This document shows positions 4,653 to 17,289 of a DNA stretch of 20,000 nt, piece after piece. The stretch is from IMG/VR virus record IMGVR_UViG_3300032038_000058, one strand, 5' to 3'. This DNA is from an uncultured virus (IMG/VR IMGVR_UViG_3300032038_000058) (taxonomy: Duplodnaviria; Heunggongvirae; Uroviricota; Caudoviricetes). Numbering within the stretch: position 1 is the stretch's first letter; each line of letters opens with the position of its first letter. The translations under genes were made by a program, and so were the position numbers. The notes beneath the pieces are model-generated. The model saw only the letters and a list, made by a program, of their open reading frames with translations, had not been told where the DNA came from and did not search any database.

Positions 4653-6032
4653 ATGAATAAAGAAAATTATATTATTCCAGAAGAGATTACATTCTATTAC
4701 CCTAAGAAATTAGGAAAGGTTAGAAGGATAGAAGGTTTTGATAAATTGCCCGACGTTCTTCCAGCCGCAGTTTGTAATAAGAAAGATACTTCAATTAAGA
4801 AGTCTAAAGTAAAGTATAATTTAGCTTGTGTCTCCGGATATCAGTCAACTTATAACTGGTATTATGTTAAAGACGGAGAAGAGGAGATATTAGGAGAAAT
4901 AACTATTAAAAACAATTCTTTTAATATAAGCTTAATTCCTAGTGAGATTTCCGAGGAGTTTTTATCACAGTGTTGCTCAGATTGGGGAAATAATTTGGGT
5001 TATAGGACGAGATTATTCCCAGTAATTATTGATTCCCCTGAGATACTATCAGCAACTAATGGTAAGCGGTTAATGGTTTTGTCTCGGTGTAGTGATTTCT
5101 TTCAAGCTTTATTAGAAAATCCATATATAATTGATGGAAAAATTAGAGGAACCTATAACTTGTCTTTTACTACACAATTCCCTGGACTAGTTGAGTTAAG
5201 GTTAGTGGATACGTCAAACCATAATTATAATCAAGCAAAAGAAAAGGGATATACTGTAGCTAAGAAAAAGACATCGAAGTGGATTCCTGGTCATTTATAC
5301 ACCAAGGGGAATGGTAACAGTTTTATATACTTAGGGGAATTTCAAAATATCATAGTAGATAGGCGTTATGGGACAGTAGAGAGTTTTGTTTCTTTACGAG
5401 AGAATAGTAATATCCTTAATAGTTGTAATGATCATCGTAAATTTAAAATGGGAAAAGTTTTTATTAATTTCCCTGAAGATGATGAAGTTAGTGAGTTTAA
5501 GGACAATTATGAAGGTGCACCATTAATAGAGTTTATTAAATTGAACTTACTAGATCAAAATACTTTCTCTGGTAGTTTAAGGTGTAGAGATTCATACAAG
5601 AGTCCAGTCACTGCTGTAGATATGGGAGAGGTTTTAGTATATGATAATAACCTAGACATAAATGCTGTATTAAAACAGATGACAATAGATCAGTTACAGT
5701 CTTTTACTAAACTGTCTGAGATCCCTGAAGAAAAGAGATTCTTATTATCATATTATCCTGAATTTGTTGAAAGTGGAAAGATAGATGAGTATTTGGATCT
5801 CTACTTGGAGAAAATGAAGAAAGAAATACTTGGTATAGGAAATTATTTCTACTATAGAACTCCTAGAAGTACCACCCCAGCTACTGCAGAGTCTATTAGG
5901 TCTAATTTAAATTGGTATTTTAGTGACATTTTGAGTAAGACTGTTTTTAATATCTCTGATTCTAAGATTAATGATATTTTAACAAAAGTTGCAGATTATT
6001 ACAACGAACAGAAAAATCTTAAGAAGCCGTGA
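4653..6032 (+). CDS. Hypothetical phage protein
   Basis: 459 aa ORF with A-rich start context; no motif recognised. Confidence 0.8.
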   Translation: MNKENYIIPEEITFYYPKKLGKVRRIEGFDKLPDVLPAAVCNKKDTSIKKSKVKYNLACVSGYQSTYNWYYVKDGEEEILGEITIKNNSFNISLIPSEISEEFLSQCCSDWGNNLGYRTRLFPVIIDSPEILSATNGKRLMVLSRCSDFFQALLENPYIIDGKIRGTYNLSFTTQFPGLVELRLVDTSNHNYNQAKEKGYTVAKKKTSKWIPGHLYTKGNGNSFIYLGEFQNIIVDRRYGTVESFVSLRENSNILNSCNDHRKFKMGKVFINFPEDDEVSEFKDNYEGAPLIEFIKLNLLDQNTFSGSLRCRDSYKSPVTAVDMGEVLVYDNNLDINAVLKQMTIDQLQSFTKLSEIPEEKRFLLSYYPEFVESGKIDEYLDLYLEKMKKEILGIGNYFYYRTPRSTTPATAESIRSNLNWYFSDILSKTVFNISDSKINDILTKVADYYNEQKNLKKP

Positions 6033-13141: not shown

Positions 13142-15228
13142 ATGGAAGATCAACAGATTATTGTCTTAAAAAAGAAGAATCGATTACCAGAGTCTTTTGA
13201 CCCTATAAAGATTCATAAAGCTATTCGTAAAAGTGCTAATAGAATTCTAACATTCCTAAGCGATGCAGAGTGTGAAAAAGTGTCAAATATCGTATTGCAA
13301 AAGATAGGGAAGGATAAAGAAGTAACAGTGAGAAGACTTCATAACATGGTAGAGGTCGCACTTGATGAAGCTGGTTTTCCTAGAGTAGCAGAGTCATATC
13401 GTCAGTATCGAAACTATAAAGAAGATGCTCAGAGGATTATGGAGGCAGTCGATGCTAAGACACTGGAGTTATCTTATAAAGAAGATAGAAGTAATGCAAA
13501 TGCAGATTCTTTGTTAGTATCAACCAAAAGAAGTATTCTGTTTGGAGAACAACAGAAAGAAAGATATAAAAGACTCTATCTTAATCCTGAGGAATTAGAG
13601 GCATATGAAAAAGGATATCTTTATATTCATGATATTAAGGATAGACTGAGTACTTTCAATTGTGATCTTTTTAATCTAGGTCGTGTTCTTAAAGGCGGAT
13701 TCACCCTTGCTAATATTGATTATACAGAGCCAAAATCCCTTGCTGCAGCGATGTCTGTGTCTACTGATTTAATTTCAGCTTATGCAGGCCAACAATATGG
13801 AGGCACGTCTATTCCCCAGATAGATGAAGTTTTTGCTCCTTACGCCGAAAAATCCTATCGCTTTTATCTTAATCAATATAATACTATTGTTACAGAGGCT
13901 GGAGGAACATATGATGAAACTAAAGCAGATTCCTACGCATATGAGAGAGTAAGACGAGAAGCAGAGCAACAGTACCAACATATGGAGCATAGTATGAATA
14001 GTATTGCTTCTAGCCGTGGTGACTATGCATTTATTACTTTTACTTTTGGTCATGGAACAGATAGGTGGAGTAGATTAATTTCTAATGTATTCCTTGATGT
14101 TCGTAGGGGCGGCCAAGGTAAAGAAGGCGGTAAGGTTCCAGTTCTTTTTCCCAAGCTTGTATTTCTATATGATTCAGAGTTACACGGCCCCGGTAAAGAA
14201 TTAGAGAGCCTCTTTGATAATGCTGTTGAAACTGCTAAGCAATGTATGTATCCTGATTTTCTAAGTCTTGATGCAGGATATATCGGTGAGGTATATCATA
14301 AATGGGGGAAAATAATTTCTCCAATGGGTTGTAGAGCGTTCTTAAGTCCAGAGTTTAAGAATTCTGGTTGGATATACCCTCAGGATGAAAATGATGAGTT
14401 TGAGATTTATCGTTGTAATCTTGGAGTTGTATCTTTAAACCTCCCAATGATATATCAAAAATCAAAGAGAGACAAAACAAATTTCTTTGATGAGCTTGAT
14501 TATTATATGGAAATAGGAAGAGGTATTGGAAAGAAGACAGCTGAATACCTCTACAAATTTAAAGCCTCTTGTGACCCGCTATGTTTTATGCAAGGTGGTT
14601 TTGATGGTGGAACATTGGGGGCAGATGATTGTATTGAACCTGTTCTTAAGAAATCAACTATTTCCTTTGGATACGGCGGACTTCATGAATTAACAATGCT
14701 TCATCTTAAGAAAAAGTTATCTGAGGATCAAAGTTTTGCTATTGAAACTATGACCCATATTAACGAAAATATAGAGAAGTATAAAAAAGAAGACCATCTT
14801 ATCTGGGCAATCTATGGCACACCAGGTGAGTCTTGGTTACCTCTGGCATGTAGCCAATTCATTAAAGAATTCGGTAAAATTAAAGGAGTTACTGATAAGG
14901 GCTTCTTCACAAACTCATTTCATGTCTGTGTTGAAGATGATATTACACCAATTGAAAAGATAAATATTGAGTCTAAGTTCTTCCCACTATCAAAGGGTGG
15001 ATGTATTAATCATATCCGTATTCCTTCAATTGCTCCTGAGATGAATAAAGGAATTAAAGATCAAATACGATACGCAATGTCTCTTGGTCTTTATCATTCT
15101 GTTAATCACGCTCAAAATAGGTGTACAGATTGTGGAGCACATTGGGTAGGAGATGATAGCTTGCCTTATGAGGAAAACTACACTTGCCCAGTGTGTGGAT
15201 CACTAAATACTATTGGTATTAGAAGGAT
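13142..15228 (+). CDS. nrdD: Anaerobic ribonucleoside-triphosphate reductase (class III RNR), exon 1
   Basis: N-terminal ATP cone, SNANAD, YIHD..FNC, GQQYGG, FPKLVF, MYPDF, SPMGCR, CNLGVVSLNLP, YGTPGES, TNSFHV, Zn ribbon CTDC...CPVCGS. The glycyl-radical GY motif is missing until exon 2 is joined. Confidence 0.95.
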
Positions 15229-15526
15229 GAATATTCGTCCCCTCTAGAAGTAATTTTAGAGTAAACAGACCGTGAACCTAGAAATCTAGGGTGTCATAGC
15301 AAAAGAAAGAAGCTATGGCTAACAGGGAAAGCTAAGTTTAGAAATAAATATGCTAATCCTGTGCCAAGTCCAGAAATGGAAAGGTGCAACGACTATCCTA
15401 CGACGTTAAGAAATAATTTTAACTGAGGAGTAGATTTAAGGTGAAACTCCTTATATCGAAGTGCGGTCCTTCCTTTTACGGGAAGATGATATAGTCTAGC
15501 ATTTATAGAAATATAAATTATAAGCA
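15229..15526 (+). mobile_element. Group I self-splicing intron (IA2-like), 298 nt, no internal ORF
   Basis: P1 GGAU/GUCC with U15228.G wobble; P2 CTCTAGAA/TTTTAGAG; P3 GACCGT (15268-73)/GCGGTC (15463-68); P4 ACAGGG/TCCTGT; P6a TCCA-GAAA-TGGA; P7 GACTA (15391-95)/TAGTC (15492-96) in CAACGACTATC...GATATAGTCT; P7.1 and P7.2 present; P9 ATTTATA-GAAA-TATAAAT. Removal restores RRMNGYLG. Confidence 0.92.
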
Positions 15527-15620
15527 GAATGGATACCTAGGATTTAGTAAAACTGTACAAGGAAAAACCAAATTCAATGATGGAAAAGAGCAAGAATTTA
15601 AAGTTCGTAAAAATCTTTAA
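15527..15620 (+). CDS. nrdD: nrdD exon 2 carrying the glycyl-radical loop
   Basis: (AT)G AAT GGA TAC CTA GGA... encodes MNGYLGFSKTVQGKTKFNDGKEQEFKVRKNL*. Spliced CDS is 2087+94 = 2181 nt, 726 aa. Confidence 0.9.
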
Positions 15621-15627
15621 TACAATG

Positions 15628-15667
15628 AATATGCCAGGTATTATTATTTAAGTATCTGGTATATTTT
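15628..15667 (+). promoter_or_regulatory. Hairpin between nrdD and the HNH gene (terminator or attenuator)
   Basis: AATATGCCAGGTATT/AGTATCTGGTATATT 15-bp stem ending about 10 nt before the HNH ATG. Confidence 0.5.
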
Positions 15668-15674
15668 ACTAATT

Positions 15675-16793
15675 ATGATAACATTAAGTAGTATAAAAAA
15701 ATTTCTAGAAACATTTTTCAATTGGGATTACTGGCATCATCTTTATCCAATCAAAGGAATATCACCAGAAATATCAATTAGGTACAAGATCAACAGAAAA
15801 GGAAGAATTTTTGATACACTCAGAGGAAAATATATTAAAGTTACTCCTTCTGAAGATTATCCTACAGTTATGCTCCGAGAAAGTTCTGGAAAGATTTATA
15901 AAAAAGGAATTCATTTATTAATAGCCCAAACATTTTTATCAAGACCCTCCGAAGAGCATACAGAAGTAGATCACATTGATAGAGATAAAAATAATTATTC
16001 TATTGATAATCTTCGTTGGGTAACTTCATCAGAAAATAAAAAGAATAGAAAATTTTCGGAGAACTCTTATAAATATTATAGAGTATGGGTGGAGTATGAT
16101 ATAAATGACCCTAGAAAGATATTATCGGGACCTATCAGTAATGAAGATTTTTTTCGAAGATTTGGCATTAAGGATCCCCCAAAAGAGATATTAATGGGAA
16201 CTTCAAAGTGGAAATCTTTTCTAATCAGAGAGGAAAATTTATTTAATAACTTTAAATTTGACGTAGAGTGGAAATTGATTCCAAATAGTAATAATAGTTA
16301 TTGTTCTAGTCAAGGATTGGTACTTTTAACAGGACGAAAGACCTCTCCGTTAATTACTAGAGGAAAATTGACTGATTCTGGATATCGAGTAGTGAATATC
16401 AAGAAAAAGCTGTTACGTGTACATAGAATAGTGTACAGTTTGTTTGGTACAGAAGCGTTTAGTTTAAATTCTAAGATGTTTATTGATCATATAGACACTG
16501 ATCGATCTAATAATGATATATCAAACTTGAAATTGGTTAAGGATCAAAAAGAAAATCTTAGTAATCCGCAAACTAGGTTGAAGTTAGGAAAATCGATTGT
16601 GCGGGTGGACTTAGAGGGTAATAAAATTACTGAGTTTAATTCTGTTGCACAAGCTAATTTATCTTTTGGGGTTGCAAGTAATAATTCCAATATTATTCGC
16701 TGTTGTAAAGGAAAACAAAAAACATACAAAGGTTATAAGTGGATGTATAAAGAAGATTATTTAAAACTTAGAGGGAATGAAACTAGCACATAA
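15675..16793 (+). CDS. Free-standing homing endonuclease with two tandem HNH domains and a C-terminal NUMOD1/IENR1-like DNA-binding domain
   Basis: IHLLIAQTF...VDHIDRDKNNYSIDNLRWVTSSEN and VHRIVYSLF...IDHIDTDRSNNDISNLKLV..KEN; C-terminal EFNSVAQA...NIIRCCKGKQKTYKGYKW. Overlaps the nrdG start. Confidence 0.88.
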   Translation: MITLSSIKKFLETFFNWDYWHHLYPIKGISPEISIRYKINRKGRIFDTLRGKYIKVTPSEDYPTVMLRESSGKIYKKGIHLLIAQTFLSRPSEEHTEVDHIDRDKNNYSIDNLRWVTSSENKKNRKFSENSYKYYRVWVEYDINDPRKILSGPISNEDFFRRFGIKDPPKEILMGTSKWKSFLIREENLFNNFKFDVEWKLIPNSNNSYCSSQGLVLLTGRKTSPLITRGKLTDSGYRVVNIKKKLLRVHRIVYSLFGTEAFSLNSKMFIDHIDTDRSNNDISNLKLVKDQKENLSNPQTRLKLGKSIVRVDLEGNKITEFNSVAQANLSFGVASNNSNIIRCCKGKQKTYKGYKWMYKEDYLKLRGNETST

Positions 16794-17289
16794 ATATTTA
16801 GCTGACCTACTTAATGGTGAGGGTCTCCGAGATTGTTACTTTTTTACAATGTGTGACCTATCGTGTTCTGGCTGCTTTAATAAAGAATTATGGAATCCAG
16901 AACCTTCTTTTGGAAAACTTTGGACAGAAGAAGATTTTCAAGAGCTTCTAGTAAATGCTTCTAAACCTTACATATCTGGGATTACTCTTTTAGGTGGAGA
17001 TCCATTTCATCCTGTAAATCGAGAAGAAATTTTGGATTTATGTAAGCGGTTTAAGAAACATTTTGGAGACTCTAAGACTATTTGGGTTTATACTGGTTAT
17101 ACATGGGAGAATATTGAAAAATCTAAAGATGCCAGGTATGAGTGTCTTAAGTATATCGATGTTCTATGTGAAGGCCCGTTTATCGAGAAATTAAAATCTC
17201 CTACTAAACCTTGGGTAGGAAGTGAAAATCAGAGAGTTATTGATGTAAAAAAATCGTTAAATACTAAAACTATTATTTTATGGAATTAA
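16777..17289 (+). CDS. nrdG: Anaerobic RNR activating enzyme (radical SAM)
   Basis: NGEGLR, CDLSCSGCFN (CxxxCxxC), GITLLGGDP, IWVYTGY, YIDVLCEGPF, GSENQRVI. Confidence 0.93.
   Translation: MKLAHKYLADLLNGEGLRDCYFFTMCDLSCSGCFNKELWNPEPSFGKLWTEEDFQELLVNASKPYISGITLLGGDPFHPVNREEILDLCKRFKKHFGDSKTIWVYTGYTWENIEKSKDARYECLKYIDVLCEGPFIEKLKSPTKPWVGSENQRVIDVKKSLNTKTIILWN

Follow-up and report, generated by a model that had tools for sequence, protein, structure and literature searches.

An intron of group I that interrupts the glycyl-radical motif of a phage nrdD gene and appears to end in adenosine

Introduction

This study concerns the nrdD gene of an uncultured virus of the Caudoviricetes (IMG/VR IMGVR_UViG_3300032038_000058), of which a stretch of 20,000 nucleotides (nt), called the window below, was analysed, and a group I intron that interrupts this gene at its glycyl-radical motif. 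The nrdD frame at 13142-15247 ends ...CPVCGSLNTIGIRRMNIRPL* and lacks the radical-glycine motif, exon 1 continuing into the intron as ...IGIRRM-N-IRPL*, and the remaining peptide, NGYLGFSKTVQGKTKFNDGKEQEFKVRKNL*, sits in a different frame at 15528-15620. The question raised by the locus is how the two parts are joined and, above all, at which nucleotides. No features of group I splice sites are more constant than a terminal G (omega-G) and a U.G wobble pair at the 5' site, and in the textbook mechanism one pocket of the ribozyme takes up the external G first and the terminal G afterwards. The original prediction, made from the letters of the window, was that this intron ends in A (omega-A). 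From the analysis described here, any reading in which the intron splices breaks one of the two near-universal end rules, the 5' U.G pair or the terminal G. The most parsimonious reading, to which we assign a probability of roughly 0.5, is that the 5' cut follows U15228 and that the intron ends in A15526. The parts of the gene are as follows.

13142..15228, + strand: nrdD exon 1, with ATP-cone and NRDD domains; ends ...IGIRR plus the AU of a Met codon
15229..15526, + strand: group I intron of 298 nt without an open reading frame (ORF), in the U15228/A15526 reading; its ends may move by +1 to +4 (GAAT repeat)
15527..15620, + strand: nrdD exon 2, the G of the Met codon, NGYLGFSKTVQGKTKFNDGKEQEFKVRKNL and TAA, as defined by translated splice combinations, the exon 2 peptides of relatives and a joint ending at 15527

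Detection of the intron and geometry of its ends

The element within the motif RRM/NGYLG (here and below, a slash marks the cut) is a group I intron, far beyond chance. Rfam model RF00028 (group I intron) matched 15236-15518 over its full length (1-253) with 65.6 bits (E 6.9e-15), above its gathering score of 50 bits, so that the covariance-model check suggested with the original prediction came out in favour of the intron, and all of the predicted coordinates hold. Four parts of its structure bear directly on the ends.

15225..15240, + strand: paired region 1 (P1), exon GGAU plus intron GA (15225-30) with UC plus GUCC (15235-40); loop AUAU; U15228.G15237 wobble
15232..15236, + strand: 5' part of the guide, UAUUC, which can pair with 3' exon GAAUG (15527-31) as P10
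15389..15396, + strand: end of joining region J6/7 and 5' strand of P7 (A15389, bulged C15390, G15391, ACUAU), read from the sequence
15519..15526, + strand: 3' tail UAUAAGCA; A15526 is at the position of the terminal G (omega) in three relatives

P1 (GGAUGA with UCGUCC, six pairs) was the minimum-energy hairpin, at -6.8 kcal/mol, and in it the partner of U15228 is G15237, the wobble pair that had been predicted. In P7, GACUAU (15391-96) pairs with AUAGUC (15491-96), next to A15389-U15497 and the bulged C15390; G15391-C15496, which by homology to Tetrahymena G264-C311 we take to be the guanosine-binding pair, is canonical, as had been noted from the letters. P10 comprises five contiguous pairs (GC, AU, AU, UA, GU), counted from the nucleotide beside the wobble G15237, with G15527 opposite C15236.

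Splice sites and the exon joint

The junction to be expected in nrdD is fixed, because intron-less homologues show the spacing RR-x-x-GY. One of them, L001, reads CPVCGSKNLTKIDRMNGYLSY (...IDRMNGYLSY) and has ten residues between CPVCGS and GYL, as in the joined product of the window, and an unbroken RRM(N or C)GYLG was present in 15 of the 20 protein relatives inspected. When U15228 was combined with the nearby Gs as intron ends and the products were translated, G15524 gave RRIRMDT*, G15527 gave RRIMDT* and G15531 gave RRMIPRI*; G15532 kept the frame (RRIYLGF) and lost the radical Gly. From U15228, the motif RRMNGYLG (RRMNGYLGFSKT) was restored only by an end at A15526, exactly as predicted.

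The copies of GAAT at the two junctions (15229-32 and 15527-30) nonetheless leave five equivalent pairs of sites that yield the same messenger RNA (mRNA), with U/A, G/G, A/A, A/A and U/U as the last letters of the 5' exon and of the intron. The prediction had already named the second of these, G15229 with omega-G15527, as the alternative. A 5' U and a G at the 3' end of the intron can in no combination produce the joint 15228 to 15527, and no such pair that keeps the frame skips 298 nt (U15232/G15527, for example, skips 295 nt and adds one residue). With the 5' cut after U15228 the terminal-G rule fails; to end in G, the intron would need a 5' site other than U, namely G15229. The last pair, a cut after U15232 with omega-U15530, was rejected, as its P1 hairpin would have no loop.

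Contigs of four public sequencing runs (X1, X17 and X18, labelled RNA, and X2, labelled DNA) were compared with positions 14700-16000; RNA-labelled libraries can contain DNA, and contigs alone do not show transcription.

X1 (RNA): contig of 4090 nt at depth 12.4; identical to the window over 14700-15228 and 15527-16000, the 298 nt between them being skipped
X1 (RNA): 288-nt contig, depth 3.1; covers 15254-15541, intron and 3' junction, with 0 differences
X18 (RNA, a different study): contig of 178 nt at depth 4.8; joint as in X1, with two differences in the exons
X17 (RNA): junction not reached by any contig
X2 (DNA): contig 15129-15431 with 0 differences; crosses the intron-bearing 5' junction; no joint

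The predicted joint, 15228 to 15527 with exactly 298 nt skipped, was found in contigs of two of the three RNA-labelled runs, which belong to two studies, and not in the one DNA run. The contigs show the ambiguity of the joint as 'both = 4', matching the GAAT repeat, and none of those compared carried a canonical alternative joint. The joints likely represent spliced RNA, and hence splicing in vivo. A stretch of X1 (15229-15253) was uncovered while the 3' junction was crossed, which was considered as a sign of an accumulating intermediate of intron and 3' exon; this was dropped, as an uncovered stretch at depth 3 proves nothing. The lack of cover in X18 over the compared part of the neighbouring HNH endonuclease ORF would fit RNA and was not counted as evidence.

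Could the A simply be a mistake, a G having been lost or miscalled at 15526/15527 in the sequence or assembly of an intron that is in truth canonical? The site adjoins a G, and single-base errors do occur in metagenome assemblies. The intron-bearing X1 contig (15254-15541), which provides the check for a missed G asked for by the original prediction, agrees with the window at every base, and no run compared had another letter or an indel at 15524-15530 (such as GCAGGAAT or GCGGAAT). The window sequence ...AAGCAGAATGG is not an assembly slip in the X1 data set. An extra G would, moreover, leave the observed joint unchanged, and we regard an error as highly improbable.

The same contigs bear on a second explanation, in which a recent terminal G-to-A change has crippled the intron and blocks ligation, the joints come from co-occurring intron-less phage DNA, and nrdD is a fresh pseudogene. 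That contigs do not demonstrate transcription is in its favour. The joined X1 contig was, on the other hand, identical to the window over all 1003 exon bases compared and ran to 16000 and on beyond the stretch compared, taking in the first part of the HNH ORF at least; because of these identical exons and the continuation into the HNH ORF, it is attributed to the same strain as the window. The joint was also found in RNA-labelled runs of two studies and was absent from the DNA run compared, and neither exon 2 nor nrdG shows decay.

Homologous introns at the same site

Two IMG/VR contigs, L130 and L126, were recovered with a pattern that linked the conserved P7 strand and a GYLG exon, and a profile built from NrdD relatives recovered 50 IMG/VR loci. 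The motif was uninterrupted in 41 of these and one locus had neither motif; three were interrupted at the site of the window (the contigs of L126 and L130, plus L589) and five at a site 8 nt downstream (L596, L603, L623, L624 and L632). The three introns at the same site are 270 (L130), 271 (L126) and 185 nt (L589) long, against 298 nt in the window, and share with it the insertion point after the AU of the Met codon. The junctions of L130 are AGGAU/GAAUUAAUUUGUCC and AAAUUUCG/GAACGG; those of L126 are the same, except that the intron starts with GAAC rather than GAAU, and those of L589 are CGCAU/AAGAUCGUUUGUGCC and GUUAGG/GAACGG.

In all three, the U before the cut is paired with G in the P1 register of the window, and in L589 a change in the exon (GGAU to GCAU) is compensated in the guide (GUCC to GUGC). 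The P7 strand CAACGACUAU is identical in the three introns, J8/7 is also common to the relatives, and the P7 guanosine-binding pair is the same. At the other end, all three have G immediately before the GAAC of exon 2, at the place where the window has A15526 before GAAU; in alignment A1 the 3' tail is CAGAAUGG in the window and CGGAACGG in the relatives. That A15526 occupies the omega position does not depend on aligning these divergent tails, because the coding sequence fixes the start of the exon as G-AAY-GGN. The alignment of homologous introns, proposed as a way to find a conserved terminal A, thus returned a conserved G.

The register of P1 is the main evidence on a third explanation, in which both sites are shifted by one, to cuts that follow G15229 (the partner of C15236) and G15527, so that the terminal G is kept and the U.G rule is broken. 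The joint and the mRNA would be identical to those of the omega-A reading, and a G would be kept in an unaltered G-binding pocket. The guide nucleotide beside the wobble G is U in L130, L126 and L589 and C (C15236) in the window, which gives a Watson-Crick pair G15229-C15236; P10, moved by one, retains four pairs, and the geometry fits as well. An intact U.G wobble nevertheless lies one step below, in the register of all three relatives. L589 could not use the shifted site: its intron begins with A, so that the conserved RRMN results only if the cut follows U, and moving the cut on by one base would produce RRIN, which was absent from the uninterrupted relatives inspected. Cleavage reportedly follows the wobble pair in work on Tetrahymena, and we know of no natural G-C pair at a 5' splice site. 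Shifted sites are, in our view, quite unlikely. The P1 register shared with the relatives places the first cut after U15228, and together with the observed joint the second cut is therefore placed after A15526. Of the predicted omega-A end, it stands that no pair of U with omega-G makes the joint and that the register of the relatives favours A15526 over the shift, the bonds cut being left ambiguous by the repeat.

The length of P10 is 5 base pairs (bp) in the window, 3 bp in L130 and L126, and potentially 8 bp in L589. The predicted 5-bp pairing of GAAUG with UAUUC beside the wobble G was borne out; its role as a compensation for omega-A was dropped, since long and short P10 helices occur among the relatives and it is not specific. 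Similarly, the predicted P9.0 pairing (GC 15499-500 with GC 15524-25) can be drawn, and as evidence it was dropped, being a 2-bp match at the level of chance that is not conserved in relatives.

The remainder of the core, most of it predicted with RNAalifold on alignment A1 or by the RF00028 alignment, is given below.

15242..15261, + strand: P2 hairpin, CUCUAGAA with UUUUAGAG (RNAalifold on alignment A1); in 3 of 8 pairs both bases differ between the window and L130/L126
15268..15273, + strand: tentative 5' strand of P3, GACCGU, pairing with GCGGUC 15465-15470 (RNAalifold); 2 pairs changed on both sides
15322..15362, + strand: P4 (ACAGGG 15322-27 with UCCUGU 15357-62) around P5 (15330-32 with 15352-54) (RNAalifold; P4-P5 alignment of RF00028, high posterior)
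15363..15385, + strand: P6/P6a (GCC...GGU; UCCA GAAA UGGA) (Rfam alignment); distal hairpin changed on both sides
15396..15453, + strand: two peripheral hairpins between P7 and the 3' strand of P3, 15396-99 with 15426-29 and 15437-41 with 15449-53 (RNAalifold); changes on both sides in both
15471..15487, + strand: P8, CUUCC with GGAAG (RNAalifold); in 4 of 5 pairs both bases differ from those of the relatives
15488..15496, + strand: J8/7 and 3' strand of P7, AUGAUAUAGUC (Rfam alignment, high posterior); conserved in relatives
15501..15518, + strand: P9 hairpin, AUUUAUA GAAA UAUAAAU (Rfam alignment and reading of the sequence)

P2, P8 and the peripheral hairpins are kept in L130 and L126 through compensatory changes, and 22 of the 85 predicted pairs are changed on both sides. 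In position, the two hairpins at 15396..15453 presumably correspond to P7.1 and P7.2 of subgroup IA. The assignment of P3 is tentative, because the hairpins 15277-15290 and 15293-15319 separate its strand from P4. RNAalifold also paired GGUAUU (15215-15220) of exon 1 with GAUACC (15532-15537) of exon 2 across the intron; these six pairs are kept in L130 and L126 with no covariation, and the two segments, both conserved coding motifs, may be complementary by chance.

Of six loci scanned with RF00028, L130 alone (57 bits) scored at or above the gathering threshold; a cut-off of E <= 0.1 still left L126, L589 and the five introns at the downstream site undetected and gave one other weak match, in L603. 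The L126 intron (- strand, 897-1211) is closely similar to that of L130, and its going unreported points to a gap in the sensitivity of the model or its filters. Because RF00028 missed these introns, its silence at a locus is no evidence against an intron there.

Closer relatives were compared as proteins. The 90% cluster of the window protein has 31 members, and among the 15 listed four reach the site, three with RRMNGYLG and the protein of the window itself with RRMNIRPL*. The next cluster (87% identity) has four members that are interrupted at the site (P0002, P0139, P0141 and P0137), whose read-through peptides are RRMEIRPL* in three and RRMEYSSPLGEILK* in one. As far as can be read back from peptides, these would imply introns that start with GG after the U and share the UUCGUCCCCUCUAG of the window, which has the single G15229 after its splice-site U, and the P1 loop would then vary by one nucleotide between the window and these introns.

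Further searches added no intron at the site. Back-translation of the single window protein retrieved no NrdD relatives from viral contigs and none from metagenome contigs. Scans for core motifs brought up many unrelated group I introns: GGTGCAACGACTATCC matched 122 stretches, and none of the 124 loci had an nrdD exon; GAACCTAGAAATCTAGGGTG matched at least 119 viral and at least 122 metagenome stretches, and among the 241 loci listed the nrdD intron was present only in the two known contigs. The pattern GATATAGTC...GGNTAYYTNGG gave at least 120 stretches in genome contigs, with no NrdD-like exon 2 among the matches listed. A 5' junction pattern gave five stretches (the two known and three by chance), a pattern designed for the closest relatives gave no matches, and no short ORFs running from intron into exon 2 were found by search. 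In a search of INPHARED phage DNA, four records matched the conserved intron core only (9-23% of the query), and the best phage NrdD match to the window protein had 44% identity.

Weight of the omega-A reading

Under the omega-A reading, splicing would proceed as follows. With a normal core from P1 to P9 and an unaltered G15391-C15496, external guanosine would be used to cut after U15228, in its wobble with G15237. In the second step the 3'-OH of U15228 would attack the A15526-G15527 bond, positioned by the 5-bp P10, with A as the intron's final nucleotide, and the product would be an intact nrdD mRNA encoding the radical glycine. A15526 would be the derived state, G being present in the homologous introns, and exon ligation would probably be slower than in the relatives and still sufficient in vivo. 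The geometry of P10 fits this pair of sites, with G15527-C15236 beside the wobble G15237 and four more pairs beyond. We infer three things: the joints stem from spliced RNA, U15228 is the nucleotide before the cut, and the G site is occupied by A15526. More tentatively, the locus may hold a natural phage group I ribozyme that ligates its exons accurately with a 3'-terminal A in an unmodified guanosine pocket, and that differs by one base at this position from its G-ending sisters.

Several points weigh against this. The ligated exons do not separate U15228/A15526 from G15229/G15527. The G15391-C15496 pair and its surroundings (CAACGACUAU and AUAUAGUC) are the same as in L126, so that nothing in the pocket is adapted to A, and from what is reported of Tetrahymena terminal G-to-A mutants and of the specificity of G264-C311, A should bind a G-C pocket poorly. 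Intron-less alleles are common, both in the protein relatives (15 of 20) and IMG/VR loci (41 of 50) counted above and in three of the four site-reaching members listed in the 90% cluster, and the joints could be intron-less DNA within RNA-labelled libraries. Among the 15 cluster members listed out of 31, no protein but that of the window read through to RRMNIRPL, and the A may be a recent change in a single lineage. A15526 itself was confirmed in one other data set only, X1, and X1 and the window may not be independent sources. The G of the relatives, the unadapted pocket, the frequency of intron-less alleles in the clade and the single occurrence of the read-through ending would equally suit a crippled intron; set against the identity of the joined contig with the window and the intact downstream coding sequence, we consider that explanation unlikely.

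Comparison with known systems

In the mitochondrial ND5-717 intron of Stichodactyla haddoni, a terminal A instead of G has been described together with ligated mRNA, and that article describes the terminal G as universally conserved (PMC8146996); the coral and anemone precedent to which the original prediction had pointed is therefore in print. The likeness would lie in a terminal A with ligated exons, the window having A15526 at the homologous terminal position and the joint in contigs, with cut sites that are ambiguous by a 4-nt repeat. The ND5-717 intron differs in being a mitochondrial, obligatory, vertically inherited giant with genes in P8, whereas the intron of the window is compact, lies in a phage and has G-ending sisters. 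ND5-717 is thought to depend on host factors (PMC3679873), and some ND5-717 introns are removed by back-splicing (PMC6545197). No phage or bacterial case of omega-A was found in the open-access literature, where the Greek letter is not searchable, so that the absence is weakly supported. With omega-A already in print for ND5-717, what is added here is a well-supported intron with non-canonical ends at a recurrent nrdD motif.

Among laboratory introns, the nearest likeness is a Tetrahymena mutant with a terminal G-to-A change, which likewise has a terminal A facing a G-C binding pair and in which exon ligation reportedly suffers severely without a change of the pocket to A-U. The intron of the window differs in being natural and in appearing to give ligated exons with an unchanged pocket. 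Phage T4 also has a group I intron in nrdD (sunY) and an HNH gene between nrdD and nrdG, mobC (42906-43538) being in the same position as the HNH ORF of the window (15675-16793). The T4 intron, unlike that of the window, lies in the middle of the gene and has a GIY-YIG gene of its own, I-TevII (44836-45612, inside nrdD 43535-46385); the window intron is ORF-less, is in the C-terminal glycyl-radical motif and is without a canonical pair of ends.

The neighbouring HNH gene and other interruptions of nrdD

The gene order in the window, nrdD, HNH ORF, nrdG, is of phage type. The exon 1 domains were found with Pfam (PF13597, E 3.8e-101; PF03477, E 2.4e-11), and both nrdD exons and nrdG are intact. 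Two genes follow exon 2.

15675..16793, + strand: free-standing HNH endonuclease ORF, 372 amino acids (aa); PF13392 HNH_3 (E 5.8e-20) in two stretches, and a weak I-HmuI NUMOD-like tail
16777..17289, + strand: nrdG activase (radical SAM); PF13353, E 2e-41

The HNH ORF overlaps the start of nrdG by 17 nt, and begins 148 nt past the last base of the intron (15526 in the preferred reading). An ORF-less intron with a free-standing endonuclease gene beyond the nrdD stop, separated from it by 54 nt (15621-15674), looks like a collaborative-homing arrangement, with the HNH protein as a candidate homing partner. The cyanophage psbA intron with F-CphI is said to be an example of such homing. Collaborative homing pairs an ORF-less intron with a neighbouring free-standing endonuclease, as outlined in PMC3984707. 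The likeness to it is limited in that L130 and L126 carry the intron without the HNH ORF of the window.

Other elements were observed in nrdD of related viruses. The five introns 8 nt downstream belong to a second, unrelated family that is inserted after AAUGGAU/, one base past the Gly codon (in L596 at about 4865-5145, and in L623, L603, L632 and L624); their ends are canonical, with U.G and a terminal G (...AAGG/AUUUAGG), and L624 has a compensatory change in P1 (GGGU with GCCC). In the 90% cluster of the window, 11 of the 15 listed members (31 in total) stop just after ...KIISPMG (P0123, P0124, P0126-P0130, P0132 and P0134-P0136), and P0131 begins MCRAFLSPEF; from these stops and this start, another interruption is therefore placed at PMG/CRAF in close relatives, and the window is without it. 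The contigs of L126 and L130 each carry one more intron of their hairpin family (L219 and L234, respectively), which lies some 3.4 kb upstream and has a GIY-YIG-like ORF (GYFGVIYKITNTINNKLYIGQT...); its host gene is probably the same nrdD, since only residues 298-697 matched in one piece. Seven NrdD relatives (P0046, P0050, P0107, P0110, P0056, P0065 and P0090) are 1073-1108 aa long or have intein/LAGLIDADG domains (PF14890, PF14528, PF05204), and inteins as well as introns invade the NrdD family.

The public runs that contain the stretch are labelled as bovine, goat and sheep gut metagenomes; among 24 runs listed, 20 contain some of it and 4 contain at least half of its sampled words.

Significance

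If the omega-A reading is true, the window and its canonical sister introns would offer a natural comparison, differing by one nucleotide with the pocket unchanged, for the specificity of the second step of splicing. Annotation would be affected as well, as tools that require a terminal G would misplace the junction and call nrdD a frameshifted pseudogene. The nrdD gene of this phage clade has been invaded at several conserved sites, and here the intron lies in the catalytic motif of an enzyme that a rumen phage would need for the synthesis of deoxynucleoside triphosphates (dNTPs) without oxygen, a synthesis that would depend on the intron. If relatives of the P0002 and P0137 type share the A, the anaerobic dNTP supply of a whole phage lineage would depend on an omega-A intron.

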